The notes: generated by a model from the letters alone, not told the origin. 32,000 nt of DNA from Phycisphaera mikurensis NBRC 102666 (GCF_000284115.1 NC_017080.1:2940001-2972000); one strand, 5' to 3'; counted from the stretch's first letter, positions 8,517-31,614 are shown. A program made the numbers and translations.

Positions 8517-11359
8517 CGCGTGCGTGCCGGTCCGCGGCCATCGCCCTCGTGCTCCACCTCGCCGCGGGCGTAGCGTTCGCGGAGCCGGCGTGGGCCGCCG
8601 CTCTTGAAGCCCGCGCCGCCACGCTCGACGCGCCCGGCTTCACCGCCGCGGTCCTCCGCGGCGGCGACCTCGCCACCCACGCGGGGGGCTTCCGCGACGA
8701 GGGCGAGACGGAAGCGATGCGGCCGGGCGATCGCTTCCGCCTCGCCAGCGTCACGAAGCTCTACCTCGCCGCGGCCGTGCTGCAGCTCGTGGACGAGGGG
8801 AAGCTGGACCTCAACGAGACCATCGACCGCTACGTCGGCGGCGTGCCCCACGGCGACGCCATCACCCTGCGGATGCTCGGCCGCCACGAGAGCGGGCTCG
8901 ACGACGCGATCCGCCAGATGCCGTTCCACCGGGCCCTCGCGGCCGAGCCCGGCCGGGCCTGGCCCGCGGGCGAGCTGCTCCGCTACGCGCTTGAGCCCGG
9001 CCCCCGCTCGGCCCCCGGCGAGGCCTGGCACTACAGCAACGCGAACTCGATCCTGCTGGGCCTCGCGGTCGAGCGTGCGACCGGCAGGAGCTGGCAAGAC
9101 CACGTCCGCACGCGGATCCTGGCGCCGCTGGGGCTCACGCGGACCGGCTTCGACGCCGGGCCCGTCGACCCCCGCGGCTACCGCTACGGCAAGCCCGACG
9201 ACCCGGTCGGCTACGGCACGGACTGGTTCGACGCCACCGGCTGGTCCGCCGGCTGGACCGGCGCCGCCGGCTCGATGACCGGCGACGCCGCCGACACGGC
9301 CCGCTTCCTCGCCGCCCTCTTCGGCGGCGACCTGCTCTCCGAGGACGGCCGGGCCGAGCTCATCGACTTCGCGCGCACCGGCGACAGCGGCTTCTTCTAC
9401 GGCTTCCACTGCCACCGCGTGGGCGTTTCCGGCAGCGACGCGGTCGGCTTCGGCCACCACGGCGACGTTCCCGGCTACAGCAGCAGCGCCGTGTGGCTGC
9501 CAGAGAGCCGCACCGCATTCGTCGTGCTCGCCAACCTCTCCGCCGAGCTGGACAAGCAGACCACCGCGACGAAGCTCGGCGAAGCGGCGTTGCCGACGCT
9601 GGCCCGCCCGGGCGGCGCCGCGGACCGCGGCGTTCCCGCCGCGCTGGAAGCCGCGGTCCGCGGCATCGTCGGGGGCTCGGCCGTCCGCCGCGCCGCCGTG
9701 GTCGTGGTGGAGGACGGCCGCGCGAGCGAGCCGCTCGGAGCGGGTTCCGCCGACGGTTCTGGCCGATTCCGGGCCGGCTCCGTCTCCAAGCTGCTCACCG
9801 CCCTGCTCGCCCTCCGCGCGGAAGAGGCCGGCGTGCTCTCGCTGGACACCGCCGTGCTCGACCTGCTGCCGGGCAGCCTCGAGGGGCCCGGCGCCGAGCG
9901 CGTCACCCTCGCCCACCTGCTCGAGCACACCGCCGGCCTGCCCGGCAGCTCCCCCGCCGAGTACGCGGCCGACGCGCCCGGGCTCGACCCGCTCGACTAC
10001 GTCCGGGAGCGGGCTCCCCTCCGGCTTCGCTGGGCGCCCGGCCTGCACCACAGCTACGCCAACGCCGGCGTCACGGTCGCCGCCGCCATGGTCGAGGCCG
10101 CTTGGGGCGCCGGCTTCGACGCGCTCATGCGTCGAGAGGTGCTCGGCCCGCTGGGCATGGCCGACACCGACTTCGCCGGGGCGGGAGCGGTCGACGCGCC
10201 CCCGAGCTTCGCCGCCGACGGGCAGCGGGTGATGCCGCCCTGGCGGATGCCCGTCCGCCCCGCCGGGTCCGTCGTCACCACCGCCGCCGACCTGGGCCGC
10301 CTCCTCGAGGCCCTTCTCGCCGACGACGGCTCCTTCCTCTCGCCCGCCGCGCTCGTCCGGCTGCACGAAGGCCGCACCTCGCCGGTCGCCCGGGCCGGCG
10401 GAGGCGCCGGGGTCTACGGCCTCGGCAACTTCCCGTACATCGCCAACGGCCGGTCGCTCCGCGGCCACTGGGGCCGGACCGAGGGCTACCAGGCCTCCGT
10501 CGCCTACCTGCCCGGTCCGCCCGGGGTCTCCGGCGGTGGCCGCGGCTACGTGCTGCTCGTCGACACCGCCGACCGTGCCGCGGTGTCGCGGCTCCGGTCC
10601 GCGCTGGACGGCCACGCCACCCGCGGCCTGCCCGCCGCCGCGCCCGCCGCTTCCGTGGGCCCCGCCCCCGACGCGGTCGCCGGCCTCTACGAGAACGCCT
10701 CCCACGACAGCGTTCAGCGTGCCTGGCTGTTCGCCCTCCTCGACGCCCGCCGCCTCACCCCCACGCCCGACGGCCTTGCCGTCGCTCCCGCTCTTGGCGG
10801 TCCACCGACCGCCTGGACGCAGACCGCCCCCGGGCTCTACCGCGCCGACGGCCTCGCCGTCGCCAGCGGCGCGACGTTCCAGGCCGGCGGCGACGCCTTC
10901 TGGGCCGACGGCGAGAGCTACCGCCGCGTGTCCGCGTGGTCCTGGTGGGGCCGCTGGACCGCCCTCGCGTCCGGCCTGCTCGCCGCCGCCGCCGCGCCTC
11001 TGCTCTGGCTGCTCGTCGTGCTCGTGCCCCCGCTCCGCTCCGCGTTGCTCCTTCCGGCCACCGCGCTCGGGCTCGCGGGCCTTGCGCTGCTCGTCCTCGT
11101 CGGCGGCTTCGTCGGCTTCCACCTCGGCGGCGACCTGTCGACGATCGCCCGCCTCGGCCGCGTCGGCCCCGCCTCCCTCACCCTCCTCGCCGCCAGCGTC
11201 CTCGCTCCCCTCGCGCTGGCCGCCGGCCTGCTCGGCCTCGCCCCGCGGTATCGGAGCCGGGCCGCCTGGGCCCTCGCCGCGGGCCTCGCGCTGCCGATGG
11301 CCGCCGCGGTCGTTCTGCTCTGGTCCTCCGGGATGATCCCCTGCGTCAGCTGGGCCTGA
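8513..11359 (+). CDS. Tandem double serine-hydrolase (beta-lactamase class C / PBP-like) protein with a C-terminal multi-TM anchor
   Basis: In frame within track ORF 7625..11359. GTG at 8513 overlaps the upstream stop (GTGA). Signal peptide [23 protein letters not shown]. Domain 1 has SVTK, HYSNAN and HHGDVPGY. Domain 2 has SVSK, SYANAG and [13 protein letters not shown]3471-like segment follows ([19 protein letters not shown]), then about 4 hydrophobic helices up to the stop. Confidence 0.85.
9618..9663. repeat. 46-nt hairpin element, copy E (inside the CDS at the junction of the two beta-lactamase domains)
   Basis: CCGCGGACCG cggcgttcccgccgcgctggaagccg CGGTCCGCGG. Exact 10-nt inverted arms and a 26-nt core; the core ends CGGC/GCCG extend the stem to 14 bp. 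Encodes ..[16 protein letters not shown].. Confidence 0.8.
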
Positions 11360-11465
11360 TCCTCACGCCGGGCGACGCCGCCGGGGGCGGCGAGCGACGC
11401 GCTGGGCCTCCGGCCGACGGAGCTTTGGAACCGCGGGAGTTCCCGAGGTGGGGTAACGTCGGGCC

Positions 11466-12248
11466 ATGTGGAAGCGAACCCGGACGATCGCGTCGGCGCT
11501 GGCGCTGGCGGCCGCAGCCGCGGGTCCCGCGGCGGCGCTGGAGGCGATCGGCTCCCGGCTGGAGGCGCTGCGGGACCCCGGCGTCGCGCACGCGCAGCCC
11601 GCCGGCGTCGACGCCGACGGCGCGCGGGCCTGGGCGCTGGGGCCGGTCGCGGGCTTCCGCGGCGAGGTGACGACCTGGAACGGCGTGCCGCACGTGTGCG
11701 TGCTGGACGCCGAGGGCCGGCCCTTCACCCTGCCGCCGGACGAGGGGGGACGCCGGCCGGTCGGCTTCCTCGTCCGCGCGATGGCGGCTCCGTCCGACTG
11801 GCCGAGCCCGCACCGCGAGGCCGGCCGCACGCGTGACCTCGCCGGCCTCGCCCGGCTGGTGGAGGCCGCCGCGGACGCGTCGGGCGTGGACCTCGACGCC
11901 GAGGGCGTGGCCTTCCGCTTGGAGGGCCGGGCGGAGGAGGTGACGTACCACGTCATCTGGCGGCCGGACGGCGAGCGGCCCCTGGCCGAGGGCGAGCACC
12001 CGGGCGTCCTGCACCGGGAGCGGAAGATCCGCTTCACGCGGAAGGACGTGCCCGTGCGGCTGGTCGGCGTGTACGCGCGCCCGCTGGAGGGCACCCACAC
12101 CCACCCGGGCAACCCGCTGCACGTCCACGCGATCCTGCCCCACGCCGATCACCCCGGCTCCTTCGTGCCGGTGCGAACCGTGGGCGGGCACGTCGAGGCG
12201 ATCCTCCTCGGCGGCATCGACGCCTTCAGCGTCACCACCGGGCGCTGA
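11466..12248 (+). CDS. Secreted hypothetical protein, possibly an alpha-acetolactate decarboxylase-like fold
   Basis: 260-aa track ORF. Signal peptide MWKRTRTIASALALAAAAAGPAAA. Segment order loosely parallels AlsD/BudA proteins (..VRLVGVYARPLEGTHTHPGNPLHVHAI...VGGHVEAI versus the family pattern GTLVGF...GYHLHF...GGHVLD). The similarity is judged by eye and is weak. Confidence 0.55.
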   Translation: MWKRTRTIASALALAAAAAGPAAALEAIGSRLEALRDPGVAHAQPAGVDADGARAWALGPVAGFRGEVTTWNGVPHVCVLDAEGRPFTLPPDEGGRRPVGFLVRAMAAPSDWPSPHREAGRTRDLAGLARLVEAAADASGVDLDAEGVAFRLEGRAEEVTYHVIWRPDGERPLAEGEHPGVLHRERKIRFTRKDVPVRLVGVYARPLEGTHTHPGNPLHVHAILPHADHPGSFVPVRTVGGHVEAILLGGIDAFSVTTGR

Positions 12249-12333
12249 AGCCGGGGCCCGGACGGCGGTGGGAGGGCCCGGAAGCCGCGGCATCCACCGC
12301 CGGCGGGCCTTCCCGGCCTACCGTGCGGGTTGC

Positions 12334-12756
12334 ATGCGTCACGCCCTCCCCTGCGTTCTCGCCCTCGGCCTCGTGGCCCCGCTGGGGGGCTGTGCCGGCT
12401 CCGCGGCAAACACGGTCGAGCCCGGCTTCTCCCGCACGGAGGCCAAGGAGGAGCTGATCGACAAGGCCGTCGTCGATCCGGGCCTCGCCAGCCGCGTGAG
12501 CGTCGAGAGCGTGCAGGTGGCCCGAGACCTGCGGCTGCGGCGGGTGGCGGCGAACCTGCGGAACCGCACGCGCGACGCGAGCTTCTTCCAGTACCGCTAC
12601 CGCTGGTTCGACAAGAACGGCATCCAGATCGACACGCCGCTGGACGCGTGGCAGACCGCCCACGTGCTCGGCGGCGACACCGGCCAGCTCGTCGGGATCG
12701 CGCCCAACGCCGAGGCGGTCGACTGGTCTCTTTCCATCCGCGGAGACGGAAACTGA
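12334..12756 (+). CDS. YcfL-like (DUF1425) lipoprotein
   Basis: Within track ORF 12268..12756, ATG at 12334. MRHALPCVLALGLVAPLGGC has a lipobox (LGGC). RNRTRDASFFQYRYRWFDKNGIQID...WQTAHVLGGDTGQLVGIAPNAEAVDWSLSIR matches the YcfL pattern (a YRF.WyD..G block, then aP...A..frl.iR). Confidence 0.7.
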   Translation: MRHALPCVLALGLVAPLGGCAGSAANTVEPGFSRTEAKEELIDKAVVDPGLASRVSVESVQVARDLRLRRVAANLRNRTRDASFFQYRYRWFDKNGIQIDTPLDAWQTAHVLGGDTGQLVGIAPNAEAVDWSLSIRGDGN

Positions 12757-13430
12757 TGCGACGCTTTCCCCTGCCCTCCCCGCGGACCGTCGGCCTCGGA
12801 CGCGATCCCGCCCCGCGGTCCGCGGCGGTCTGCGCCATCGCCGCCGCCCTCCTCGTCGCGTCCTGCGGGCCGGCGTCGCAGCGGATCGACCCGCGCGGCG
12901 ACCGACAGGTGCAGGGCGAGACGGCGACGTTCGCGCAGTTCAGCGACGCGGCCAGCGAGATGCTCGGCAAGATGCTGCGGTCGGACTTCCTCGACCGCGA
13001 GGCCTACCGGCCGCACCCGGTGCGCATGGTCGTGTCGGACATCGAGAACAAGACCGACACGCTGCCGCCGACGGAGCTGATGCTGTCGCGGATCCGCGAA
13101 GGCCTGCTCAACAGCGGCAAGGTCGTGTACGTGAGCACGCTGGGCAGCGACGGCACCGACCGCTTCACCACCGAGGCGCCCGGGCAGCTGCTCGACGGCC
13201 GCCCGAACTTCCGCGACGACACGCTCCCCGAGGCCGGGCAATTCGAGGCCCCGCGCCTGTCGCTGCGGACGCAGGTGCTCTGGTACGCGCAGGTCGGCAA
13301 CCAGGCGCGGCAGAGCACCTACGTGGTGCGGATGTTCGTCTCGGACGTCCAGCGGGGCGTGACGATCTGGGAGTCCACGAGCGACCCGATCGCGATCCGG
13401 ACCGAGCGTGGCCGCGGCGTGGGGCTGTAG
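12756..13430 (+). CDS. LpoB-like lipoprotein (penicillin-binding protein activator LpoB / COG3417-like)
   Basis: In frame within track ORF 12330..13430. ATG at 12756 overlaps the ycfL-like stop (TGATG). Lipobox LVASCG comes after an unusually long N-region. VRMVVSDIENKTDTLPPTELMLSRIREGLLNSGKVVYV and the C-terminal ..YVVRMFVSDVQRGVTIWES fit the LpoB-type fold pattern. No alternative in-frame start lies between 12756 and the lipobox. Confidence 0.65.
   Translation: MRRFPLPSPRTVGLGRDPAPRSAAVCAIAAALLVASCGPASQRIDPRGDRQVQGETATFAQFSDAASEMLGKMLRSDFLDREAYRPHPVRMVVSDIENKTDTLPPTELMLSRIREGLLNSGKVVYVSTLGSDGTDRFTTEAPGQLLDGRPNFRDDTLPEAGQFEAPRLSLRTQVLWYAQVGNQARQSTYVVRMFVSDVQRGVTIWESTSDPIAIRTERGRGVGL
12780..12825. 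repeat. 46-nt hairpin element, copy D (inside codons 9-24 of the LpoB-like CDS)
   Basis: CCGCGGACCG tcggcctcggacgcgatcccgccccg CGGTCCGCGG. Exact arms and a 26-nt core. The first 16 nt are identical to the left arm of copy B. Confidence 0.8.
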
Positions 13431-13463
13431 GCCGCGCCTCCGCCTGGCGGCGTGGAGCCCGGG

Positions 13464-14375: not shown

Positions 14376-14442
14376 GCCGGCAGACTATGAACCCGCCGCG
14401 GGCCGCCGGAAACGCGCTCCGGGCCGCCCGCCGACCAATGCA

Positions 14443-15102: not shown

Positions 15103-15110
15103 GGCCCGTC

Positions 15111-15734: not shown

Positions 15735-15759
15735 ATCCACCCCCTCCGAGGCTCCCGCC

Positions 15760-16497
15760 ATGCATGCTCTCTTTCACGCCCGCCCGCTGCCCGCCGCGCT
15801 GCTGGCCGCCGCGCTCGCCGCCGCCCCGCCCGCCCTCGCCCAGCCCGATCCGCCGCCGCCGCCGCGACAGGCGGATCAAGACCGCGGCCACGGGCAGCAC
15901 CACGATCGCGAGGGGCGGCGTGGCGACGCCGGTCACCGCGGGAGGGAGGGGCGCCACGGCGGCGGCGGCGAGGAAGACCACCGCCGCCCCTCGCGCGAGG
16001 AGATGGCCGCCGTGCTCCGCGACATCGACCCCGCGCTCGCCGAGCGGGTGGCCGACCGCGAGGCCCGCGGCGGCCCCGGGGGGTTGGCCGGCCGCCCGGG
16101 CCGGGGCGTCGTCGCCGCCGACGGCATCCGCACGCTGTTCCCGCAGATTGCGCGCCTCACCCGGCTCAAGCAGGTCGACCCCGCGCTCTACGACCTCCGC
16201 GTCCGCGACATCCGCTTCGAGCGCGACACCGAGCGGATCGTCGCCGAGGGCCGGCGGCTCCGCGGCGACCCGACGATCGAGGACGCCGACGACCGGCTGG
16301 AGGACCTCCACGACGAGCTCGAGGAGAAGGTCGAGGCGCACTTCGAACTCCGCCAGGAGATCCGCGCCGCCGAGCTGGAGCGGCTGGAGAAGCGGCTGGA
16401 GCAACTCGAGGAGGACCTCAAGCGGCGGCAGGACGACAAGGACGCGCTGATCGCCCAGCGCCTGGCCAAGCTCCGCGGCGACGACGGCGGCTGGTGA
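15760..16497 (+). CDS. Secreted coiled-coil protein (hypothetical), third gene of the ECF module
   Basis: In frame within track ORF 15472..16497. Signal peptide MHALFHARPLPAALLAAALAAAPPALAQP, a His/Arg/Gly/Asp-rich low-complexity segment, then an E/R/L-rich helical C-terminus (LHDELEEKVEAHFELRQEIRAAELERLEKRLEQLEEDLKRRQDDKDALIAQRLAKL). This is reminiscent of periplasmic Spy/CpxP-type helical proteins, but no motif was confirmed. Confidence 0.55.
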   Translation: MHALFHARPLPAALLAAALAAAPPALAQPDPPPPPRQADQDRGHGQHHDREGRRGDAGHRGREGRHGGGGEEDHRRPSREEMAAVLRDIDPALAERVADREARGGPGGLAGRPGRGVVAADGIRTLFPQIARLTRLKQVDPALYDLRVRDIRFERDTERIVAEGRRLRGDPTIEDADDRLEDLHDELEEKVEAHFELRQEIRAAELERLEKRLEQLEEDLKRRQDDKDALIAQRLAKLRGDDGGW

Positions 16498-16645: not shown

Positions 16646-16691
16646 CCGCGGACCGGGAGACGTTGAAGCCGATGGGGAGCGCGGTCCGCGG
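16646..16691. repeat. 46-nt hairpin element, copy A (convergent intergenic region)
   Basis: CCGCGGACCG ggagacgttgaagccgatggggagcg CGGTCCGCGG. Exact arms and a 26-nt core. It lies between the stops of the 15760 gene and the PDZ gene and could act as a bidirectional terminator. A near-palindrome GCTGATCCGGATCGGC follows directly. Confidence 0.8.
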
Positions 16692-16834: not shown

Positions 16835-18295
16835 TTACCGGGCGGGGCGCGGCTCGATGATCTCGAAGGCGCGGAAGTCGGCCTCGAGCCCGACCACGTG
16901 CAGGTGGAAGACGAGGCGGCGGGGGGTGGGGTTGGCGGGGAGGTCCAGCAGCGTCCGGCCGTCGAGGACGACGGTCCGGCGGCCGCCGCGGCGGGAGAGG
17001 TGGAGGTGGTGCTCGGCGGTCCCGTCGAAGAAGGACGCGGCGATCGGCTCGTAGTGGCCCCAGCCGTGCAGCAGGGTCACCTCGCGCTCGCCGTCGCTGA
17101 AGGCCTGGAAGTTCGCGCCCAGCACGGACGTCTCGCCGCCGAAGTAGGCCGGCCCGTCGGGCTCGGGGGTCGTCTCGTAGTCGCTCACGTTGATGAGCAT
17201 CGACGAGGGCCACCGCTCGCTGGGGGGGCCGGTGAGGCGGACGGTGAAGCTGGCGTGGAGGTCGAAGTCGCCGAAGGGCTCGTTGCGGGTGAGGAAGGCC
17301 TGCTTGTAGAAGGCGGGCCGCTGGCTGATGAGCAGCGGGCGGTTCTCCACGATCAGGTCGTCGTGGGTGTGGAAGTCGGCGCCCCAGGGCCACTCCGCCG
17401 CCCCGTGCAGCATCGGGTTCACGACGCGGGCCGGGCCGGCGGGCTCCGCCGCGGCGGGGGGCGCGGCGGCCCCGGGGGGCGAGGCCGGGCCGCCGGACCG
17501 CAGGAACGCGGCCTGGGCCGGCCAGCGGGGGAGGCGGGCGAAGGGGAAGAAGCCCGGCCGCCGCTCCACGAGGTCGACGAGGTCGCCGGTGCGCCCGCTG
17601 GCGAGGAAGAAGCGGTACCGGTCGAGCGGGCCGGGCAGGTGGAGCTGGTTCTGGTGGTCGGTGCGCTCGGGCAGCGTCGCGAGCAGCTCGCCCGCGCGGT
17701 CGAGCTCGCCGAGCCCGGCCGCGACGCGGAAGGCCAGCCCGCGAAAGACCGGGTCGTCCGGGCAGCCCGCGGCCCGCACCGCCTCCAGCCGCCGGGCCGC
17801 CTCGCCGGGGTCGCGCCGCTCCAGGGCCCACGCGGCGTCGAGGAGCGCGCCGTTCCAGGCCTCGTCGCGGGCCATCGCGCGGCTGACGGCCAGCGCCAGG
17901 CGCGCCGGCCGGGTGCGGAGCGAGACCCCGATCAGGCCGTCGCCGAAAGCGTGCTCGCGGGTCCGTCCCTCCGCGTCCGCGAAGGCGATGCGGTCGCCGC
18001 CCTCCCGGCCCCGGAGGGGGGTGAGCTGCGGGTACCGCAGCACCGACTCGCCGTTGATGGCGACGATCACCTCCCCGGCCCGGACCCCCGCGGCCCGGGC
18101 CGCGCCGTCCGGAGCCACGGCCAGGACGTCGACCCCGGCGACGGGGCCCGCGTCGGCGTCGAGCTCCTGGAGCGTTGGCGTCAACGCGGGTTGCCCGTGG
18201 GCAACCCACGCGCACGCGCAGGCCAGCGCGACCCAACAGGACGCAGGGACGACGCCGGGGGCGCTCCGGGGTCGGCGAGCGCGGAAGAGCTTCAT
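16835..18295 (-). CDS. Secreted PDZ-domain protein with a C-terminal ConA/DUF1080-like region
   Basis: 486-aa track ORF. Signal peptide MKLFRARRPRSAPGVVPASCWVALACACAWVAHG. PDZ-like GVDVLAVAPDGAARAAGVRAGEVIVAINGESV. A helical middle region. The C-terminal beta-rich region ending RRLVFHLHVVGLEADFRAFEIIE resembles the DUF1080 tail. Its ATG (18295) overlaps the upstream stop (ATGA). Confidence 0.75.
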   Translation of the reverse strand: MKLFRARRPRSAPGVVPASCWVALACACAWVAHGQPALTPTLQELDADAGPVAGVDVLAVAPDGAARAAGVRAGEVIVAINGESVLRYPQLTPLRGREGGDRIAFADAEGRTREHAFGDGLIGVSLRTRPARLALAVSRAMARDEAWNGALLDAAWALERRDPGEAARRLEAVRAAGCPDDPVFRGLAFRVAAGLGELDRAGELLATLPERTDHQNQLHLPGPLDRYRFFLASGRTGDLVDLVERRPGFFPFARLPRWPAQAAFLRSGGPASPPGAAAPPAAAEPAGPARVVNPMLHGAAEWPWGADFHTHDDLIVENRPLLISQRPAFYKQAFLTRNEPFGDFDLHASFTVRLTGPPSERWPSSMLINVSDYETTPEPDGPAYFGGETSVLGANFQAFSDGEREVTLLHGWGHYEPIAASFFDGTAEHHLHLSRRGGRRTVVLDGRTLLDLPANPTPRRLVFHLHVVGLEADFRAFEIIEPRPAR

Positions 18296-21200
18296 GGGGA
18301 GGTTCCTCGCAGCCGGGCGACGGCGGCCGCGGGGTCCCGCAGCAGGGCGCGGACGGCTTCGCTGCCCGCGAGGACCAGCGCGGACCGCCCGCGGTCGTCG
18401 GTGGCGGCCGGGTCGGTCCCGAGCGCCAGCAGCAGCGCAACCTGCGCTGCGGACGCGTCCTCGTTGCGGCCCGGGCGGGCGCGGGAGGCGGCTTCGGCCA
18501 GCAGGGTGAGGCCCTCGCGGTCGGGCACGTCGACGCTGAAGCCGCGGGCCACCAGGCCGACGGCCAGTCCCCGGAAGCCCCGGTCCAGCGCCAGCGTCGC
18601 GGCGAAGTCGCCCAGGCGCCAGGCGCCCGCGAGCGGGCGGTCCAGCCGGGGATCGCCCGGCGGCGACATCAACCCGAAGAGGTCGAGGCGGCGGTCCCTC
18701 AGCGCCTCCAGCGCCGGCACGCCCCAGCCCCGGAAGGCGTGGTCGGGGTCGTAGCCGCTCGTGGCGAAGGGGTCCGCCCCGGCGTCGAGCACGCGGGCGA
18801 GGATCTCGGGGTCGCCGCGGTCCACCGCGCTCTCCAGCACCCCCGGCCGGGCGGCGTCCGCGCCGGCGTCGAGCAGGCGGTGGACGGTTTGGGCCTCGGC
18901 CAGGGACACCGCCGTCTCCAGCGCCGTGAACCGGCCGGCGTCGCTGAGCCGCGGGTCGGCGCCGCGGTCGAGCAGCAGGTTGGCGATGGCGTCGTCGCGG
19001 CGGCTGAGCGCCAGGGTCAGCGGGAACATCCGGTCGGCTTGGAGGCGGTCGTCCCGCACCGACGCGCCCGCGTCGAGCAGCGCCCGCACGCAGGCGAGGC
19101 GGCCGCGGCGGATGGCCAGGTGCAGCGGGGCGCAGCGGAAGGCGTCGAAGCCGTCCTCTTGGTGGATGGCCGGCGGGGCGATCCGGGCGTACGCGTCGAG
19201 GTCGCAGCCGTTAGCGCCCAGCCAGGCGATGCAGCGGGAGGCGTCCGCCAGCACCGCGGCGTGGCCGAGGGTGCCCACGGCCGCGTGCGTCGCGTCGAGG
19301 CTCGCCCCCGCTTCGTGCAGCAGCTCCAGCAGGTCGGGCCGATCCATCAGCACGGCGAGCAGCGCCGCGTTGTGGCTGAAGCGGCCGTAGGTCGCGGCGT
19401 CGGGATCGGCCCCGGCCGCCAGCAGGCGCGCGACGGTGCCGGCCCGGCCGGAGCGGACGGCGGCGAGCAGCGGGGGCCACGCGTCGGGCTCGGCGAGCGA
19501 GGGCGTCCCGGCGGGCGGGAGCTCCCCGCGGTACGCCGCCCAGGCCTCAAGCGGAACACCGAACGGAAGCGGCTTCGAAGACGCGGTCGCGCCGCCGGGG
19601 TCTTCCACGCCCATGGCCGCCAGCAGCCCGTCGCGGCGGAGCATCACCACGTCCCGCTCGGGGTCGGGCACGAACAGGTGCACCTCGTCGTGGGCGACGA
19701 AGAAGTCCGTGAGCCGCCCGGTCCACTCGGTCTGGCCGAGCACGCCCCCGCTCTCCGCGTCGACCGCCAGCAGCCGCGTGAGGAAGCGCTCGGGCGGGGG
19801 GCCTACGACGCGGGCGTCCCGCGTCGGCGGGTCCGGGTCCTCCCAGGCGTACGCCATCCAGACGAGGCCGCCGTCGCCGCGGATCCGCAGCGTCTCCAGC
19901 GGCGGGGCGTGCAGGGGCAGGTCCCGCAGCACCTCGCCCGCGCCCGAGACCTGCAACAGCCGCGTTTCGAGCACGACCCAGAAGGCGTCGCCCTCGGCCT
20001 GCACGTCGACGACCGCTTGGTCGCCGTGCGGCGTGCGGGACGCGAGCCAGGCGTCGAGCGGCTCGACGCCGTCGGTCCCGACCCACGACCAGGGTGTCTT
20101 TCGCCCCCCGCCGCCGCCCATGGCGGCCCGGCCGCCGGCGGCCTCCAGGCGGGCGCCGGAGAACCGCTCCTCCAGCCGGGCGTCGAGCAGCCGGAGGTTC
20201 TCGAGCCCGCCGTCGGGGTTCTCGACGAGCCCCAGCCGCCCGTCGCCGCTGAGGACCCAGACGCGCGTGCCGTCGAAGGCGACGCGGCGGACGTCCCCGG
20301 AGACGAGCCTGTCCTCGGGCCCGAGCCTCCAGGCCTCCTCCCCCCAGGGCAGCATCAGCTTCAGGCCGTCCCCGGCCGTCGCCAGCCAGAGCCGCCGCTC
20401 GGAGGCGGCGAGGTCGGTCCACTGCGCGTCCCCGACGCGCTCGTGCAGCGGGGCGACGCGGAGGGTGAGCGGGTCGAGCAGGCCCAGCCCCTCGGGCGGG
20501 GCGGGGGAGTCGGGCGACCGGTGGTGCGGGGCCCGGAGGCCCGCGTAGCGGCCGCGCCACGGCACGACGCGGCGGACCTGCGGGGTGTGGCCGCGCCGGT
20601 CGAGGGTCAGCTCGCGGCCGGGCGACACGTCCCAGGTGAGCTCCAGCCGGGACACCTCCGCGACCGCGTCGGCCCCCGCGACCGCCGGCTCCTCCACGTG
20701 CCGCGGGAGCCCCGGCGTCGCCGCGGGGTCGTCGCCGTACCGGGCCCGGCGCAGGCGGTCCCGCTCCTCGAAACGCGCCCGGACGTCCGGCGGGAGACCG
20801 GGAGGCATCGACGGGAACGACGACCGGGCCGGCGGGGAAGACGCCGCGGAGGACGCGGGCGGGTCGGCGACCGGCTCGGGCGAGGCGGCGGGCTCCGGCC
20901 GCAGGGTGCCGTCGGCCACCCGGGCGTCGATCCACGCCCGGAGGTGCTCGGCGGCGGCGGCGGTGAGCCGGGCCGCTTGCGGCTGCGCCTCGCCCGCCGG
21001 CGGGTCCGCCGCGAACATGGCCTCGTGTTCGGCGGACCGGCCCGCGGAGGCGAAGGCCTCGGACAGGCGGTCGAGCAGGTCGGGGTCGAAGGTGAAGCGG
21101 TGGGTGTCCAGCCGCTCCTCCTCCCAGGCGGGCTCGAAGACGGGCCACCACGCGCTCCAGACCGCGGCCGTCTCCGCGTCGCTCAGGCGGAAATCGCGGG

Positions 21201-22986: not shown

Positions 22987-23018
22987 GACCGCGTGACCGC
23001 GTGACCGCGTGACCGCGC
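22987..23018. repeat. Octanucleotide microsatellite (GACCGCGT)x3 plus GACCGCGC
   Basis: gaccgcgt gaccgcgt gaccgcgt gaccgcgc, read directly. It lies in the 97-nt spacer between the CsgG-like gene stop (23029-23031) and the giant gene ATG (22929). Confidence 0.9.
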
Positions 23019-23028: not shown

Positions 23029-24093
23029 TCAGTCGGCGGGCGGCTCCTCGATCAGCCGCCGCAGCAAGCCCTCCACCAGCCGCCGCCCGGCCTTCTGCAA
23101 CGCCGACTTGCCCGCCACCTGCTCGGCCAGGTCCACGCCGCGCGTGGTCACGCGGTCGGCGAGGACGATCCGGCCATCCTCCCGGCGGACGACGTTGATC
23201 TCCGCCCGCGCGTTCGCGAAGCGCAGCCGGCCCATCGCGCCCGCACCCTCGCTGAAGCCCTCGCCGACCACCACCCAGTCGACGCCCTCGAGGCTGCGCG
23301 GCCACGACGGTTCGTCGCCGCGGTCGTACGCCCGGACCCAGTCCGCCAACGCGTTGTCCTTCAGGTCGCGGACATCCACCCCCGCGTCGATCAGCACCTT
23401 CTTGATCTCCGTCTCGACCGCCGGGTCGGGCACCGCCGGGGCGGGGGCCGGTCCCCGGACGTGCTCCTCGGGGATCACCACCGCCATCACCGGCGTGCCG
23501 CCGCGCTCGCGCAGCGTCGCCACCAGCCCCGGCACCGGGTCCCGGGGGACCTCGCCCGCCACCAACTCCCGCCCGTGCTCCCCCAGCAGCGCCACCATCC
23601 GCTCCGCCGCCTCGAAAACCATCTCGTCGAGCGGCGTGTCGAGGCTCTCGCGGACCATGACCGAGCGCGTCCGCGTCGTCTCGGTGCCGATCACCTTCGC
23701 CGTCACCACCCGGCTCTCGCCCAGCTCGAAGGCCCGGCCGGTCACCAGCAGCCTCGCCCCGACCACCCGGCCGATGGCGACGGCTTGGGCGGTGTCGGTC
23801 ACGCCGCTGCGGCTCACCGCCTGCTCGGCGACGGTGCGGTCCAGCCGAGTCCGGTCCACCAGGCTCAGCCCGTCCTCGCCCGAGAGCATCGCCTCCAGCA
23901 CGTCGTTCATGAGCTCGCTGAGCCCCGCCCCGCCCGCGGGCTCGGCGCCCCCCACCGCCTCGAACCCCAGCACCGCCACGGTCAAAGGAGCGCCGGCGGC
24001 ATCGGCGGCATCGGCGGCCGACGACGCCACCGCCGGCCCGGCGAGCGAGCAGACGCACACCAGGGCGATCCGAGGGATCATCGTGTCGAACAT
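23029..24093 (-). CDS. Secreted CsgG/LpoB/TolB-N-like two-module protein (hypothetical)
   Basis: In frame within track ORF 23029..25236. ATG at 24093 (alternative at 24081), with GGGAG 9 nt upstream. Signal peptide MFDTMIPRIALVCVCSLAGPAVASS. LTVAVLGFEAVGG...LSELMNDVLEAMLSGEDGLSLVDRTRLDRTVAEQAVSRSGVTD..AVAIGRVVGARLLVTGRAF is the characteristic CsgG/LpoB-type module. A second alpha/beta module follows. Confidence 0.75.
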   Translation of the reverse strand: MFDTMIPRIALVCVCSLAGPAVASSAADAADAAGAPLTVAVLGFEAVGGAEPAGGAGLSELMNDVLEAMLSGEDGLSLVDRTRLDRTVAEQAVSRSGVTDTAQAVAIGRVVGARLLVTGRAFELGESRVVTAKVIGTETTRTRSVMVRESLDTPLDEMVFEAAERMVALLGEHGRELVAGEVPRDPVPGLVATLRERGGTPVMAVVIPEEHVRGPAPAPAVPDPAVETEIKKVLIDAGVDVRDLKDNALADWVRAYDRGDEPSWPRSLEGVDWVVVGEGFSEGAGAMGRLRFANARAEINVVRREDGRIVLADRVTTRGVDLAEQVAGKSALQKAGRRLVEGLLRRLIEEPPAD

Positions 24094-24352: not shown

Positions 24353-24398
24353 CCGCGGACCGTCGGCCGTTCCCGCCTCCCGGGCCGACGGTCCGCGG
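24353..24398 (-). terminator. 46-nt hairpin element, copy B; probable pgl terminator
   Basis: CCGCGGACCGTCGGCC gttcccgcctcccg GGCCGACGGTCCGCGG is a perfect 16-bp stem with a 14-nt loop. It lies 37 nt downstream of the pgl stop on the minus strand and is followed there by ATCTTTCGG (a short T-run). The outer 10 nt of each arm are the family arms. Confidence 0.55.
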
Positions 24399-24434
24399 GT
24401 GGGAGCGGCCGCACCGGGCGTCCGCGACCCGCTC

Positions 24435-25220
24435 CTAACGCTCTTCGCCGCCGGAGCCCGCCGCCGCGGCGTCGAGGTACCAGGCGAGGGTGCCGCCGTG
24501 CTTGCCAGGGTCGATGCCGCTGATGGGCACCTCCTCGGCGTCCACCGTCCCCGCCTCGTGCAGCGCCTCGACCCGCCGCAGCGCGTCCGCCTTGCCCGAG
24601 CCGGTGAGCAGCACGGCGACCCGCCGGGCGTTGTTGAGCAGCGGGTAGGTCATCGTGATCCGCGGCGGCGGGACCACCTTCTCGCCGTCGTTCTCGGCGA
24701 CCCAAGCCTCGGTTTCCCCGAGCGCGGGCGAGGCGGGGAACAGCGACGCGGTGTGGCAGTCCCCGCCCATCCCCAGCAGCACGAAGTCGAGCTTCGGCGG
24801 CACGCCGCCCCCGCCCGCCGAGGGCAGCGCGTGCCCGTAGGCGTCCGCCAGCTCGTCGGCGTAGCGCCCCGCGGGGTCGTCCCCGTCGACGAACATCGGG
24901 TGGACCTGGTGGCCGGGGGTCGGCACGTGGTCCAGCAGCGCGGACCGCAGCATCCGGATGTTCGCCTTCTCGTGGTCCGCCGGCACCCGCCGCTCGTCCA
25001 CCACCCAGACGTGCGTCTGCGCCCAGGGCATCGACCGGAACTCCAGGTCGGTCGCGAGCCGCTCGTAGAACGGCTCGGGCGTCCCCCCGCCGGAGAGCGC
25101 GAGGTGGAACTGCCCGCGGGCGTTGACGCTCTTGGTCGCCGCGTCGAGCAGGTCGCGGCCGAGGGCGGCGTGCAGCGCCTCGGGATCGGGCTGGACGATG
25201 ACGCGGCCGGAGAGCTTCAT
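24435..25220 (-). CDS. pgl: 6-phosphogluconolactonase
   Basis: In frame within track ORF 24435..25712, ATG at 25220. MKLSGRVIVQPDPEALHAALGRDLL...FHLALSGGGTPEPFYERLA...WVVDERRVPADHEKANIRML...DFVLLGMGGDCHTASLFP...RITMTYPLLNNARRVAVLLTGSGKA matches the DevB/Pgl (SugarP_isomerase) family. Confidence 0.9.
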   Translation of the reverse strand: MKLSGRVIVQPDPEALHAALGRDLLDAATKSVNARGQFHLALSGGGTPEPFYERLATDLEFRSMPWAQTHVWVVDERRVPADHEKANIRMLRSALLDHVPTPGHQVHPMFVDGDDPAGRYADELADAYGHALPSAGGGGVPPKLDFVLLGMGGDCHTASLFPASPALGETEAWVAENDGEKVVPPPRITMTYPLLNNARRVAVLLTGSGKADALRRVEALHEAGTVDAEEVPISGIDPGKHGGTLAWYLDAAAAGSGGEER

Positions 25221-25462
25221 GCGGAGGTTGTAGCACCGACCGCAGCGGGAAGCCGCGGACCAGCCCGGCGGCGGGGCCGACGCTTTGCTCGCGGCGGCGG
25301 GACGCTCCCGCACCCGCTCGCCCCGCCTCCGCGGGGTCTCGGCGGCGTCAGGTCCGCGTGGAGCGTCGGGGCTCCGCCTCGACGCCGCGGGCACGGACCC
25401 CAGGGAGAGGACGCATCCCGGAGGGACACCAGGGCCCGCGGGAGACGCGGGCAGCGGGTCAT

Positions 25463-25492
25463 TTGACGGAGGGCGAAACGCTGCGTTACCTT
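25463..25492 (+). promoter_or_regulatory. Candidate sigma-70-type promoter (TTGACG-18 nt-TACCTT) for the 25567 PEP-CTERM gene
   Basis: Motif match only, in the 346-bp divergent region. A strong SD-like AAAGGGGAA lies 6-14 nt upstream of the ATG at 25567. Confidence 0.25.
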
Positions 25493-25566
25493 CACCGGTA
25501 TCAGTCGGCCGCGGCGCGTGCCCGGTCGCCGCCTCCGAGGTCCTTCCTAAGAAAGGGGAACGATCG

Positions 25567-26241: not shown

Positions 26242-26275
26242 ACGCAGAGCCACGCCGGACCGGACCGCGGAGCGC

Positions 26276-27433
26276 ATGAACCCCTCGCCGCGGATGGACC
26301 GGCACACGCTCAGCGTGCACCTCCTCGTCCGCGACGAGGAGCAGAACCTGCCCGCGGCGATCGGCAGCGTTGCCGGCGTCGCCGACGAGGTCGTCGTCAC
26401 CGACACCGGTTCGACCGACGGCACCGCGGCCGTCGCCGCCGGGCTGGGGGCGCGGGTGGGACGCTTCGCCTGGCGCGACGACTTCGCCGCGGCGTGGAAC
26501 GCGGGCGTGGCGTCCTGCCGCGGAGACTGGGTGCTGATCCTCGACGCCGACGAGCGGCTGCTGCCCGCGGCCGCCGGTCCGCTGCGCTCCTGGCTGGCGC
26601 GGCCGGCCGCCGACGCGGCCCGCGTGCTGCGGCGGGACCTCCGCGAGGCGGGCGACCCGTCCCGCTTCACGCGCATGGCGGTGCTCCGGCTGTTCCGGCG
26701 CGAGCGAGCGGTGGCGGCGCCCTTCGTCGGCCGCTGCCACCCGCACCCCGACCCGATGCCGGCGGCCCGGCCGATCCTTCCGGGGGTGGAGCTGGAGCAC
26801 CGCGGCTACCTGCCCGCCGCCCGCCCCGCCAAGCTGGCCCGGTCGCGACGCCTGCTGGAGCTGGAGCTCACCGACCGGCCGACGGGGCCGCGCAGCCTGT
26901 ACTACCGCATCGAGCTCGCCCGCACGCTGCTGGGCTCGGGGGATCCCGCAGCGGACGCGGCCGTGCGAGAAGCCGCCGCTGGCCTCGCCCCGCACGCCGA
27001 CGCCGCGGCCGCCCCGCTGCCGCACGCGGCCCTGCTGCTGGAGGTGCTGCTGCAGTGGCCCGCCGACCGGCTGCCCCCGCCCTGGACGCCGGCGGCCGTC
27101 GCCGCCGCCGCGGACCGCTGGTTCCCCGACGCCCCGCCGCTGCTGTGGCTGCGCGCCGGGCAGGCGTTCGCCGCCGGCGACGACGCCGCGGCCGCGGCCA
27201 CGCTCGAGCGGCTGGTCGCGATGGGCCGGGACCACGGCTACGACCCGCACACCGGCTTCGATCCGGCGATCGTCGCCGAGCGGGCGGCGCTGAACCTCGC
27301 CGCCTGCCGCATCCGCCTCGGCGACCTCGCCGGTGCCCGCCGCCTGCTCGAGCCCCTCGCCGACGACCCCCGCGTGGGCGAGCAAGCCCGCACCAACCTG
27401 GGCCTGCTCGACGGGCTGCGGGCCGACCGCTGA
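26276..27433 (+). CDS. Family 2 glycosyltransferase with a helical/TPR-like C-terminal half
   Basis: 385-aa track ORF. LSVHLLVRDEEQNLPAAIGSVAGVADEVVVTDTGSTDGT and WVLILDADE are the GT-A/GT2 DxD-type motifs. The C-terminal half is Ala/Leu-rich and helical. An alternative start is the ATG at 26294. Confidence 0.8.
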   Translation: MNPSPRMDRHTLSVHLLVRDEEQNLPAAIGSVAGVADEVVVTDTGSTDGTAAVAAGLGARVGRFAWRDDFAAAWNAGVASCRGDWVLILDADERLLPAAAGPLRSWLARPAADAARVLRRDLREAGDPSRFTRMAVLRLFRRERAVAAPFVGRCHPHPDPMPAARPILPGVELEHRGYLPAARPAKLARSRRLLELELTDRPTGPRSLYYRIELARTLLGSGDPAADAAVREAAAGLAPHADAAAAPLPHAALLLEVLLQWPADRLPPPWTPAAVAAAADRWFPDAPPLLWLRAGQAFAAGDDAAAAATLERLVAMGRDHGYDPHTGFDPAIVAERAALNLAACRIRLGDLAGARRLLEPLADDPRVGEQARTNLGLLDGLRADR

Positions 27434-27567
27434 GGCAAGCGTGCCCGCGGGCCTCGGCGTGGCCCGCTCCGCCGCCGGCCGCTCCGGCGACGGCGTCGCG
27501 CCCGGTGCGTGGCGGGGCCGTGCCGCGCCCCTCGCCGCGCGGCCGGATCCGAGCGCCGCGTGCCGGC

Positions 27568-29268
27568 TCAGCTGCCGCGCCGCCGGCGGCGCGGCAGCAC
27601 GAGCAGCCCGCCGGCGGCCGCGAGAACGGCGCTGGAGGGCTCGGGGACGACGGCGGACATCACCTCGAAGCTGGCGGTGAGGCCGACGTACCCGTCGCCC
27701 CAGCCCTCGAGCCCGGCCATGCCGTAGCGGGCGAGGTACTCGGTGTCGACGCCCTCGGTGAACCCGTTGAGCAGGGCCGCACCCACGCCGCGCGCGTAGA
27801 TCGGCACCAGCTGGTTGGTGTGCTGGGTGGACTGCATGAGCATCTCGGGCTTGTTGCCGATGCCGGCGGTCTCGATGAGGTCGAAGGCCTCGGTGTCGCC
27901 GTCGGGGCCCCAGAGCATGCCCGCCTCGTGGTCGGCGAGCACCATCACCAGCGTCTCGTCGAAGTTGGGATCGTTGGCGGCCACCCAATCCAGCACGGCG
28001 TCCACGGAGTCGTTGAAGTCGACCTGCTCCTCGATCAGCCGCGTCGTGTTGTGCCCGTGGCCCGCCCAGTCCACCTGCGCGCCCTCGACCATCAGGTACA
28101 TCCCTTCCCGGTCCTGCTGGGCATCGAGCTGGTGGATCGCCGCTTTGGTCAGCGTCGCCAGCGTCGGCGTCGCCGCGTTGAAGGGGTCGCCCGCGGAGTC
28201 GTCGCCGGGGTTCACCGGCGCGGCCTGCCGCTCGGCCTTCTGCGCTTCGGTGAGCGGGAAGAACGGCGTGAAGGGCTCGTTGTCGACGACGCCGTTGCCG
28301 TCCCAGTCGTCCGTGATCGGGCGGAGGTACTGCAGCGAGTTCCGCGACTGCGCCAGGCCCAGCAGCCGGCCCTGCGTCGCGGCGGCGGGGTCGGCGGCGA
28401 GGGCCTCGAAGTCGGCCCGGTCCTCCACGAGGTCCCAGCCGCCGGCGTGGGTGCCGGCCTTGAGCTCCACATAGGTGGCGGTGCCGCCGATGTTGCGGGC
28501 GGCGGTGCTGGTCGGGTCGTTCACGTCCAGCGGCGTGAAGTTGCCGGCGTCGTCGTACTCCGGGTGGCCGGGCGTGAAGATCAGGTCCAGCGTGCCCTCG
28601 TCGAGCATCTGGTTGGCGATCTCCTGCGTGTTGCCGCGGCTCACGTTGTGGGCCCCGCCCATCGTGGCCGGCGTGGCGTGGCTGAAGTAGACGCTGCTCA
28701 CCACGCCGGTGGCGCGGTTGTTGGCGCGGGCCAGCTCCGCGATCGTCTGCCCGGTGAGCGGCGCGTCGTCGTTGGTCCAGTTGATGCCGCTGTTGAAGGT
28801 CCGCACGCCCGCGGCGATGGCCGTGCCCGCCGCGGCCGAGTCGGTGTACGTGCTCTTGAGGAAGTTGTAGCCCGCGAAGGGGCCGCCGGAGTTGCTGGCC
28901 GCTCCGGGGGCGGTCGGGCTGAGCGGGTCGGCAAAGGGCACCCGCGCGTTGTCCACCGGCTGGGCGCTCGTGTCCCACGCGGCGGCCGGGTCGTAGACCA
29001 GCGTGGGGTCCTGCCCGGCGCCGTCGGGCTCACGGTTGAAGGTGAGCGGGTGCGTCGAGGCACCCACCTTGGTCCAGCCGGCCTGCTCGTAGGGCAGCCG
29101 GCCCAGGTCGCCGTGCTGGTACATCGAGGCCGCGTTGAACTGGTTGAAGCCCGCGCCGTCGCTGATCAGCACGAACAGGTTCTTCGCCTCCTGCGCCGCG
29201 GCGGCGCTCCCGCCGGCCACGCCCACGCCCACCAGGAACACACGAAGCAGAGTCGAGGTCCGAATCAT
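27568..29268 (-). CDS. Alkaline phosphatase (PhoA family) carrying a PEP-CTERM sorting tail
   Basis: Track ORF 27568..29310. The preferred start is the ATG at 29268 (MIRTSTLLRVFLVGVGVAGGSAAAAQE signal peptide; AAGGAAAGG upstream). Active-site block YTDSAAAGTAIAAG (the D-S-A-A motif). Metal-binding regions EGAQVDWAGHGHN and LVMVLADHE. C-terminus VPEPSSAVLAAAGGLLVLPRRRRRGS. Confidence 0.85.
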   Translation of the reverse strand: MIRTSTLLRVFLVGVGVAGGSAAAAQEAKNLFVLISDGAGFNQFNAASMYQHGDLGRLPYEQAGWTKVGASTHPLTFNREPDGAGQDPTLVYDPAAAWDTSAQPVDNARVPFADPLSPTAPGAASNSGGPFAGYNFLKSTYTDSAAAGTAIAAGVRTFNSGINWTNDDAPLTGQTIAELARANNRATGVVSSVYFSHATPATMGGAHNVSRGNTQEIANQMLDEGTLDLIFTPGHPEYDDAGNFTPLDVNDPTSTAARNIGGTATYVELKAGTHAGGWDLVEDRADFEALAADPAAATQGRLLGLAQSRNSLQYLRPITDDWDGNGVVDNEPFTPFFPLTEAQKAERQAAPVNPGDDSAGDPFNAATPTLATLTKAAIHQLDAQQDREGMYLMVEGAQVDWAGHGHNTTRLIEEQVDFNDSVDAVLDWVAANDPNFDETLVMVLADHEAGMLWGPDGDTEAFDLIETAGIGNKPEMLMQSTQHTNQLVPIYARGVGAALLNGFTEGVDTEYLARYGMAGLEGWGDGYVGLTASFEVMSAVVPEPSSAVLAAAGGLLVLPRRRRRGS

Positions 29269-29477
29269 CGTCGCTACACCTTTCCTTGGAAACTCGCCGG
29301 CCGCGGGCAACGCCCACGACGAAACCGGCGACGGAAAGCTCCCGGCTCCGGGTCACCGCCGCGCGTCGATCGCGTTGCTTTCCGGTGAGCGGTTGCGTGC
29401 CGGTGCATCTCCCCCACGCGTCCCCGCGGGCGGAACCGGCGGGCGGCCTCACGCGGCGACGCCCGCCCCGGGCCACG

Positions 29478-29523
29478 CCGCGGACCGAGCCGCCGCGACG
29501 CGTTTCGGGCCCACGGTCCGCGG
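29478..29523. repeat. 46-nt hairpin element, copy C (430-bp noncoding gap between zwf and the phosphatase gene)
   Basis: CCGCGGACCG agccgccgcgacgcgtttcgggccca CGGTCCGCGG. Exact arms and a 26-nt core. Confidence 0.8.
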
Positions 29524-29698
29524 CCCGCGCGACCGCCGCAGCCCCGACGCTGCGGGCGACGGCGCACGCGCGGCGGGGGCGTCAGCCCTGCGCAGGCGCG
29601 GCTCGACACCAATTCAGATCCGGCTTCGGCTCCGGCTCCGGCCCAGACCGGCCGGGTTCGGCTCGCGGCGCGCGAGCGGCCCGCTCCGCGGAGCGTCG

Positions 29699-31228
<1,530 letters not shown>

Positions 31229-31314
31229 GGGCAGAGCCTAAGAACCCGCCGCTCCTCCAGCCGCGGGCTCCCGAATCCGGCACGACCGGGGGCCGGGTGC
31301 CACGCGGGTGCGCG

Positions 31315-31470
31315 CTAGCGGTGATCCCCGAGTTTCCTCAGGGCTCGCCGGCAGAGCCCGTGGAGCTGCCGGACGGCGAGATCGAGCTCGGTCGACAGCT
31401 CGAGCATCGATTTGCCCCCGAGGAAGCGGCCCACGAGGATCTTCCGCTCCAGCTCGGTCAGTCTTTCCAT
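31315..31470 (-). CDS. Small sigma-70 region-4-like HTH protein (51 aa; may extend to 31665)
   Basis: MERLTELERKILVGRFLGGKSMLELSTELDLAVRQLHGLCRRALRKLGDHR resembles sigma-70 region 4 / LuxR-type HTH. The 116-aa track ORF adds a Pro/Ala/Arg-rich N-terminus that contains hairpin copy F, so I prefer the internal ATG at 31470. The start is unresolved. Confidence 0.5.
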   Translation of the reverse strand: MERLTELERKILVGRFLGGKSMLELSTELDLAVRQLHGLCRRALRKLGDHR

Positions 31471-31568
31471 GACGGGGTCCGGGTGCTCTGGCGTGATGGA
31501 TGCGGGACAAGGAGAGGAGGATCCAACGCCAGCCGGTGCGTTGGGCCGCGTCGGCGGGCCGACGGGAT

Positions 31569-31614
31569 TCGCGGATCGGCGGCGTTTCGGGCCGTTCCGC
31601 CCAGCGGTCCGCGG
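31569..31614. repeat. 46-nt hairpin element, copy F (degenerate left arm)
   Basis: TCGCGGATCG gcggcgtttcgggccgttccgcccag CGGTCCGCGG. Same 46-nt length and 26-nt core. The two left-arm changes are C-to-T, which still pair as G.U on a plus-strand RNA. The core shares GCGTTTCGGGCC with copy C and CCGTTCC(C)GCC with copies B and E. Confidence 0.7.

Follow-up and report, generated by a model that had tools for sequence, protein, structure and literature searches.

A 46-bp site with invariant inverted arms and a fixed spacer in Phycisphaera mikurensis and its relatives, a candidate duplex-DNA recognition signal

Several kinds of short sequence recur throughout bacterial genomes. Among the repetitive extragenic palindromic (REP) sequences, bacterial interspersed mosaic elements (BIMEs) are bound by gyrase or integration host factor (IHF), and RIP units consist of two inverted REPs flanking a fixed linker with a bend site. 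Rickettsia palindromic elements (RPEs) are insertions of 100-150 bp that add a peptide segment, and miniature inverted-repeat transposable elements (MITEs) have target-site duplications (TSDs) and similar cores. Uptake sequences lie in open reading frames (ORFs) in 34.5-65% of cases, in frames tracking preferred codons and on poorly conserved residues (PMC2817400); the 10-mer DNA uptake sequences (DUS) of Neisseria are stringently conserved and often form closely spaced inverted pairs that serve as terminators near gene ends (PMC2397512). The palindromic HIP1 motif (GCGATCGC) of cyanobacteria is conserved within and between ORFs and maintained by selection, with a function that is unresolved and a proposed link to nucleoid structure (PMC5861425), and a link to methyltransferases has also been proposed (PMC4390886). 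Here, we describe a family of sites in the Planctomycetota that resembles each of these systems in part. It was found in a 32-kb window (the whole stretch of DNA that was analysed, 32,000 nucleotides) of Phycisphaera mikurensis NBRC 102666 (NC_017080.1:2940001-2972000), and each site consists of two inverted 10-nt arms, CCGCGGACCG and CGGTCCGCGG, separated by 26 nt. The species is borne out by the G6PD gene of the window, which is on contig JACHEL010000002.1 of GCA_014207395.1, and by MurF and the serine hydrolase, which match NCBI P. mikurensis proteins at 100% identity. We give about an even chance to the reading that this 46-bp site is a dyad-symmetric recognition signal in duplex DNA, held in place by selection or by a conversion-type drive.

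A pattern search recovered six sites in the window, five of the exact form CCGCGGACCG-N26-CGGTCCGCGG and one with two mismatches, at the same positions as in an initial annotation made from the sequence:

9618..9663, exact: in the coding sequence (CDS) of a two-domain serine hydrolase (S12/beta-lactamase family; 8519-11359, + strand), codons 367-382
12780..12825, exact: in the CDS of an LpoB-family lipoprotein (12756-13430, + strand), codons 9-24 (PRTVGLGRDPAPRSA)
16646..16691, exact: convergent intergenic spacer, 148 nt past the stop of 15760-16497 (+ strand) and 143 nt past the stop of 16835-18184 (- strand)
24353..24398, exact: 36 nt downstream of the stop of a 6-phosphogluconolactonase-like gene (24435-25220, - strand) and 259 nt upstream of 23029-24093 (- strand)
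29478..29523, exact: 175 nt downstream of the stop of the glucose-6-phosphate dehydrogenase (G6PD) gene (29699-31228, - strand), ahead of an alkaline phosphatase gene
31569..31614, degenerate: left arm TCGCGGATCG (two C>T) and right arm exact; in the long spacer between gidA and G6PD, 340 nt upstream of the latter

These numbers are far from those expected by chance, as the initial annotation had claimed in proposing a dispersed family of hairpin-capable palindromic units, and the codon-aware null that it called for bears the proposal out. With codon order permuted inside the 25 called genes and intergenic DNA shuffled, none of 2000 shuffles contained an exact site (observed, 5), and sites with two or fewer mismatches averaged 0.015 (observed, 6); a dinucleotide-shuffle null gave a mean of 0.21 sites at three or fewer mismatches. 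When spacings from 20 to 32 were scanned in the window, sites with at most two mismatches were found at spacing 26 only, and the mismatch distribution was bimodal, with five sites at 0, one at 2 and the background at 4 or more. The flanks of the window (15 kb) contained two further exact copies, which brings the P. mikurensis total to eight copies in 46.6 kb, each with its arms 26 nt apart, and the frequency in this species and its closest relatives is about one per 5 kb. Single unpaired exact arms occurred five times in the 32 kb, every one in a CDS; four of them (249, 1156, 8528 and 27108) had been listed before and a fifth (30309) had been overlooked. Their would-be partners at 26 nt carried 6-8 mismatches. 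Unpaired exact arms thus numbered 5 versus about 1.2 expected by base composition, and 34 versus 51 at one or fewer mismatches; the excess of arms comes essentially all from pairs at N26.

Three coding copies are present in P. mikurensis, in the genes for MurF, the LpoB-family lipoprotein and the serine hydrolase, and all three are retained at orthologous codons in a relative with 75-87% protein identity. When three independent orthologous coding loci were pooled, 1/60 arm bases differed compared with 28/78 core bases (Fisher p = 1.5e-7). The MurF copy occupies codons 49-64 (SADRDGHGFAEATVRG) and aligns without gaps to the MurF structures of E. coli and P. aeruginosa (1GG4, 4CVK); the conserved DGHxF motif sits in its core and the arms sit on variable residues. 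At about 52% identity, MurF has GENH...AFEAG where the Phycisphaera clade has SADR...xVRG, and about 7 residues differ at the arms. Both arms are exact in four MurF orthologues, with core codons varying synonymously. All four degenerate codons whose third base lies in an arm are identical in three orthologues, versus 37% gene-wide, and the codon just outside the arm varies; the base at -2 of the site is A (GGA, GAA and AAA codons) despite a G+C content of about 97% at third codon positions (GC3). The LpoB site, which encodes the n-region preceding the lipobox signal peptide, lies at codons 9-24 both in P. mikurensis and in the relative that we label L124 (16338-16383), where 20/20 arm bases are the same and 13/26 core bases different. 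In the serine hydrolase, the left arm falls in the linker between the two domains, which varies in length, and the right arm in the native first helix of domain 2; in the L186 orthologue (1643-1688), 19/20 arm bases are retained and the arms are again 26 nt apart. These alignments show the coding copies to be native sequence, not insertions, and the arms are under constraint at the nucleotide level; the latter had been proposed in the initial annotation, where conservation was placed at the nucleotide and not the protein level because the two in-CDS copies of the window use two different reading frames, which they do.

The arms and the spacing recur beyond the window in at least four related genomes or metagenome-assembled genomes (MAGs). 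The carriers are L124/L125 and L180/L181/L186 (G6PD 87%, MurF 75% identity), L182 (a 1.34-Mb MAG contig) and L183, and the density in L124, L180, L182 and L183 is about one per 3.5-7 kb. The spacer is 26 nt in all copies but one, which has exact arms and a 25-nt spacer (L182, 2080-2124). In 32 kb of more distant Phycisphaerae (G6PD 74-77% identity), neither a copy nor any other recurrent inverted arm was present, and a scan of viral contigs returned 0 matches. A metagenome scan with the exact pattern returned 53 stretches. About 31 of these were low-coverage contigs of one marine assembly (ORXU01), a few more came from its sister assemblies ORXT01 and ORXM01 and from Ga0115029, and the remaining ~17 were lone matches in unrelated, mostly soil, samples, several of which (L133/L144, L140 and L175) lie in CDSs in the AADR...AVRG frame and represent the chance background. 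Such lone matches are what a coincidence of common high-GC codon strings (AADR / AVRG) would produce, and a variable-gap (N16-36) scan of the genome collection, with at least 120 stretches, points the same way: those listed all came from other high-GC genomes as single chance matches, with spacing 26 in 3 of the 120 listed. For this clade, however, coincidence is refuted and its probability is close to nil, since the codon-aware shuffles did not yield a single exact site and the copies recur at orthologous codons in relatives. Rfam gave nothing at the gathering threshold or at E <= 1, and literature searched with the arm sequences gave unrelated primers only and nothing on Phycisphaera repeats, in agreement with the initial annotation, which did not recognise the sequence as any described family. 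The family is apparently undescribed and restricted to the Phycisphaera clade.

The location of copies was analysed in 188 kb of clade DNA, with genes called by a GC3-based caller. The intergenic copies are distributed as follows:

Convergent spacers: 7 copies, 1.6 per kb
Co-directional spacers: 14 copies, 1.1 per kb
Divergent spacers: 2 copies, 0.3 per kb

Nine of the 14 co-directional copies lie 40 nt or less from the upstream stop codon, and 11/14 are closer to that stop than to the next start. The placement of non-coding copies at gene 3' ends, described for the window in the initial annotation, is supported and is like that of REP/BIME elements. Copies in divergent or promoter-side spacers also occur (L143, L182 2080 and L182 17962), and tandem copies 132-211 nt apart were found in L143 and L148. 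At unbiased loci, that is, loci not chosen for containing a site, 10 of 22-23 sites (~43%) are in CDSs, corresponding to about 0.1 per kb of CDS versus 0.8 per kb of intergenic DNA. Coding copies are read in two frames only, xADR...xVRG and PRT...RSA, which both employ GC3-preferred codons; the third frame would require GGA or GGT. An association with peptidoglycan genes (murF, lpoB and the DD-peptidase-like gene) was considered and rejected, because further coding copies were identified in unrelated genes, namely those for GTP cyclohydrolase II, a rhamnosidase, an NTP transferase, an aminotransferase and an ABC ATPase.

Alignment of the copies gave the consensus (A)(K)-CCGCGGACCG-YSG...N...CSR-CGGTCCGCGG-(M)(T), with the arm centres 36 bp apart. 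Inside the arms the consensus is partial and symmetric (Y at 11 and R at 36, S at 12 and 35, G at 13 and C at 34), A/T is enriched at about 18-19 and 27-29, with T favoured at 18 and A at 29, and the core centre is GC-rich. The outer flanks favour A at -2 and K at -1, with the mirror-image preference on the right side and no GTAG, and no outward extension of the stem was detected. Each arm is composed of two overlapping palindromic subsites, CCGCGG (SacII-type) and CGGWCCG (RsrII-type). In clear family members, every arm mismatch is a C>T or a G>A change, four of them at arm position 8 (ACCG>ATCG); at L182 17962-18007 the same C8>T change is present in both arms (ATCG...CGAT), and the symmetry is kept. 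The cores are essentially unique among 53 loci, with a maximal ungapped identity of 19/26, which equals the null maximum, and a longest common substring of 12, where the maximum of the column-shuffled null is 9-13. The blocks of 10-12 nt reported earlier as shared between cores are inside this null and are not meaningful, leaving only a weak common consensus; the idea that the cores are sliding windows on one template was rejected for the same reason, the shared 12-mers being inside the null.

The folding energies of the copies lie between -23.5 and -40 kcal/mol, and the lowest z is -6.1. The stems noted at first reading were borne out, 14 bp for the 9618 copy (-40 kcal/mol) and a perfect 16 bp for the 24353 copy; extra internal pairing of the cores ranges from 0 to 6 bp, and the 31569 copy folds weakly (z = -0.97). 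Hence an RNA-level hairpin, which we regard as possible but rather unlikely, has to be considered: a GC stem of 10-16 bp would terminate transcription, protect mRNA 3' ends as REPs do or be the operator to which a hairpin-binding protein or an RNase responds, and each hairpin in a coding sequence (murF 5' region, lpoB codons 9-24) would regulate the gene that contains it. The stable folds, the bias towards gene 3' ends with its maximum in convergent spacers, and the pairing-preserving symmetric double change at L182 17962 all speak for this explanation. The core alignment and covariation test suggested with the initial annotation speaks against it. Watson-Crick combinations exceeded independence marginally at pair 11-36 (p = 0.03-0.09), not at all from pair 12-35 to pair 17-30, and again at pair 18-29, with p = 0.003 for all copies and 0.075 for non-coding copies; the invariant arms are uninformative for covariation. 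Because there is so little excess, the symmetry of the consensus indicates a sequence preference, not pairing. In at least five genomes the arms are invariant instead of covarying, and a perfect A-form stem offers little sequence-specific reading. Core orientation relative to transcription shows no sense-strand asymmetry (A 119 vs T 99, not significant), there is no U-tract, the copies in divergent or promoter-side spacers are badly placed for such a role, and a terminator inside the essential murF CDS, kept in four genomes, is hard to rationalise. The spacer, moreover, stays at 26 nt although the internal pairing varies; this rigidity despite unrelated cores points to a constraint on linear distance, which a duplex fits better than a hairpin loop. 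The RNA hairpin reading leaves unexplained that the arms are sequence-invariant, the spacer is fixed, covariation is nearly absent and strand asymmetry is lacking; the bias towards gene 3' ends and the double change that looks compensatory keep it in contention.

The initial annotation had likened the family to REP- or RPE-type elements. The palindromic form and the 3'-end location stand, whereas the mobility implied by that likeness does not, in view of the native coding copies, the unique cores, the lack of TSDs and the absence of a transposase or RAYT gene from the window. A selfish hairpin of REP/REPIN or MITE type, moved in trans by a transposase whose gene lies elsewhere, either a RAYT (IS200/IS605 Y1) or another enzyme, is unlikely in our view; its arms would be the recognition stem of the enzyme or terminal inverted repeats (TIRs), and the coding copies would be rare tolerated events. 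On the one hand, the copies are many, palindromic, mostly extragenic and 3' of genes, and sometimes in tandem (L143, L148), and their intergenic presence or absence differs among species. The lack of TSDs is as expected of elements moved by Y1 transposases: matching flanks of 2 bp (7/66) and 3 bp (2/66) were at about the chance level, and none of 4 bp or more was found. A RAYT-type system in the clade is also suggested by a relative. The junction of the FGE-sulfatase and methyltransferase genes carries the 46-nt element and a run of CGCCCA hexamers in P. mikurensis (L123, about 4155-4195), and in L124 the same junction (20131-20260) carries three classical REP-like units, GTAGCCCGGCAAC-N4-GTTGCCGGG, in a REPIN-like arrangement, from which it follows that a canonical GTAG-type REP family coexists in the clade. 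On the other hand, the coding copies are not insertions and are kept orthologously with constraint on the arms only, 46 nt is not a multiple of 3, the diversity of the cores equals that of the column-shuffled null with no master sequence among the 53 loci, the flank preference is symmetric with no asymmetric 5' tetranucleotide like GTAG, and no transposase or RAYT gene was found in the window or its flanks (47 kb). Selfish copies would be expected to decay at orthologous sites, yet the arms there are intact. Transposition thus fails as an explanation because the coding copies are in situ, the cores are unique and conservation is limited to the arms.

Orthologous intergenic spacers proved unalignable in an empty-site comparison. 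Between near-identical strain pairs, 8/12 differences (L124 17234-17309 vs L125) and 32/38 differences (L180 14179-14394 vs L181) lie within about 100 nt of a copy, and in L180/L181 the arms are intact within about 15% local divergence. Recombination patches, local hypermutability or artefacts of strain switching in the metagenome assemblies could account for these clusters. In ORF 639-2048 of the window (a 469-aa lipoprotein-like protein), positions 1588-1642 carry a 14-aa insertion (ADADRGASGTTRGA-like) exactly where L124 has a copy with one mismatch (17262-17307), the L125 counterpart of which has three mismatches; this L124/L125 site is decaying or nascent and lies in a variable loop. Next to the 31569 copy, a 106-nt tandem repeat (6.5 copies, 93% identity; 31728-32000 and on beyond the window, L001 8799-9495) fills the gidA-G6PD spacer, which in relatives is just 61-289 nt long. 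A 51-aa ORF in this region (31315-31470, - strand) comprises only a sigma-70 region-4 helix-turn-helix, and a 51-aa ORF near gidA/G6PD was also called in L124 and L126. Elsewhere in the window, a mini tandem repeat (GTGACCGC, three times) lies at about 22990-23015 between a 1545-aa ankyrin-repeat gene and the next gene downstream, and two adjacent ORFs (5890-6645 and 6623-7582) have sorting signals of the PEP-CTERM type (...RRRR) at their ends, which were detected as a direct repeat of 69 nt.

The make-up of the arms, two palindromic subsites read off the sequence, raises a further explanation, in which the over-representation is a by-product of DNA methylation and repair (HIP1- or VSP-type, with VSP for very short patch), driven by an orphan methyltransferase together with mismatch-specific repair. 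The restriction of arm mismatches to C>T and G>A transitions, four of them at position 8, is as expected of a 5-methylcytosine hotspot, and HIP1 is linked to orphan methyltransferases (PMC4390886). We nevertheless consider this explanation very improbable. It leaves the pairing of the arms at exactly 26 bp without an explanation, and neither subsite is avoided or enriched: CCGCGG by itself is very common, with 215 sites in 46.6 kb, but no more so than a maximal-order Markov model predicts, and CGGWCCG shows no over-representation once the element is set aside.

Compared with the described systems, the 46-bp site shares most with uptake sequences in its evolution. Both the site and the uptake sequences (Neisseriaceae DUS, 10-12-mers; Pasteurellaceae uptake signal sequences, USS) are clade-specific, near-invariant and stringently conserved oligomers with copies in the hundreds to thousands, and the site shows clade-specific over-representation, occurrence in ORFs in preferred-codon frames and on weakly conserved residues, and conservation between orthologues. 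Like DUS and USS, it has a substantial share of copies in ORFs (~43% at unbiased loci), only two frames in use and variable residues beneath the arms in MurF. It differs in that the unit is an obligate pair at a fixed 26-bp spacing and a single copy is not the enriched unit; its density is also about 5-fold lower than that of DUS and USS. HIP1 and the 46-bp site are both palindromic and hyper-abundant, and the conservation of both inside ORFs as well as between them implies selection; for the site the orthologous conservation above background is that of the arms over the core (1/60 vs 28/78). HIP1, unlike the site, is a lone 8-mer without a partner or spacer, is much denser and is not concentrated at gene 3' ends.

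Like the site, the REPs and BIMEs of enterobacteria and pseudomonads cluster past stop codons and in convergent spacers, occasionally as tandem copies, and combine a conserved stem base with a centre that varies; the RIP units in particular resemble the two arms together with the W-rich positions 18-19 and 27-29. REPs are, however, extragenic by definition, carry at the 5' foot an asymmetric tetranucleotide of the GTAG type that RAYT recognises, and occur as populations around master sequences without orthologous conservation inside genes; the site is not strictly extragenic, has no GTAG-like foot and lacks near-identical copies around a master. RPEs, Correia and RUP elements share with the site the presence of palindromic repeats in protein-coding genes that are not destroyed by them. 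The coding copies of the site differ from RPEs and MITEs in adding no residues (MurF), in the lack of TSDs and in their unique cores: no extra peptide segment of the RPE kind is present, as the MurF alignment is gap-free and in the serine hydrolase only the linker length varies, and no TSDs flank the arms as they would TIRs. The covariation expected of a structured RNA of the Rfam type is absent apart from pairs 11-36 and 18-29. The site is REP-like in location, uptake-sequence- or HIP1-like in evolution and unlike either in architecture.

We infer from the above that recognition would take place on duplex DNA, not RNA. In this duplex-signal reading, the site would be a clade-specific signal of ~50 bp with two invariant 10-bp arms, and its most likely reader would be a putative sequence-specific factor in dimeric or higher oligomeric form. 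Copies would arise and persist in situ through point substitution, not be pasted by transposition, and purifying selection or a conversion-type drive would maintain them wherever the sequence is tolerated. The tolerated places would chiefly be those just past stop codons and between convergent genes and, within genes, two frames with preferred GC3 codons on weakly constrained residues; where copies are transcribed, the GC stem of 10-16 bp may additionally act as a 3' hairpin. Two purposes would be the leading candidates, the marking of self-DNA as by uptake sequences and an architectural or topological role like that of REP/BIME elements or HIP1.

Several points weigh against this duplex-signal reading. 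Intermediate sites (1-3 mismatches) were nearly absent from the window scan, which is awkward for gradual evolution in situ unless maintenance is very strong. A single arm is not clearly an enriched unit (five in the window), unlike DUS and USS, whose single sites function. The double C8>T change at L182 17962 looks compensatory, as expected of a hairpin or of intrastrand correction. The positions of intergenic copies are not shared between species, which fits turnover or mobility as well as drive. Inverted arms and a post-stop position are equally expected of an RNA or single-stranded-DNA hairpin element, and we know of no described precedent for a bipartite uptake signal with a 46-bp dyad.

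With these points in mind, we tentatively suggest, at somewhat less than an even chance, that the site represents a new class of bipartite, dyad-symmetric genome-wide signal in Planctomycetota. Such a signal would span 46-50 bp, with 20 invariant bases and a free 26-bp spacer, would be written by substitution into intergenic and coding DNA, reshaping ~7 residues of MurF, and would be kept perfect across species, with a putative dimeric reader serving self-DNA recognition (uptake or recombination) or chromosome organisation. In-situ genome-wide signals (uptake sequences, Chi and HIP1) are few, and each has led to dedicated machinery. The present one is unusually information-rich, with its 20 invariant bases and measured spacer; it is confined to a small group around Phycisphaera, and its strength suffices to override the choice of codons and amino acids in an essential gene. 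It also cautions that families of hairpin repeats need not be mobile elements. In a phylum whose DNA transactions, including division without FtsZ, condensed nucleoids and competence, are poorly understood, the 50-bp duplex is an obvious bait for a candidate reader protein. On the practical side, the motif provides a sharp taxonomic marker for Phycisphaera-like metagenome contigs.

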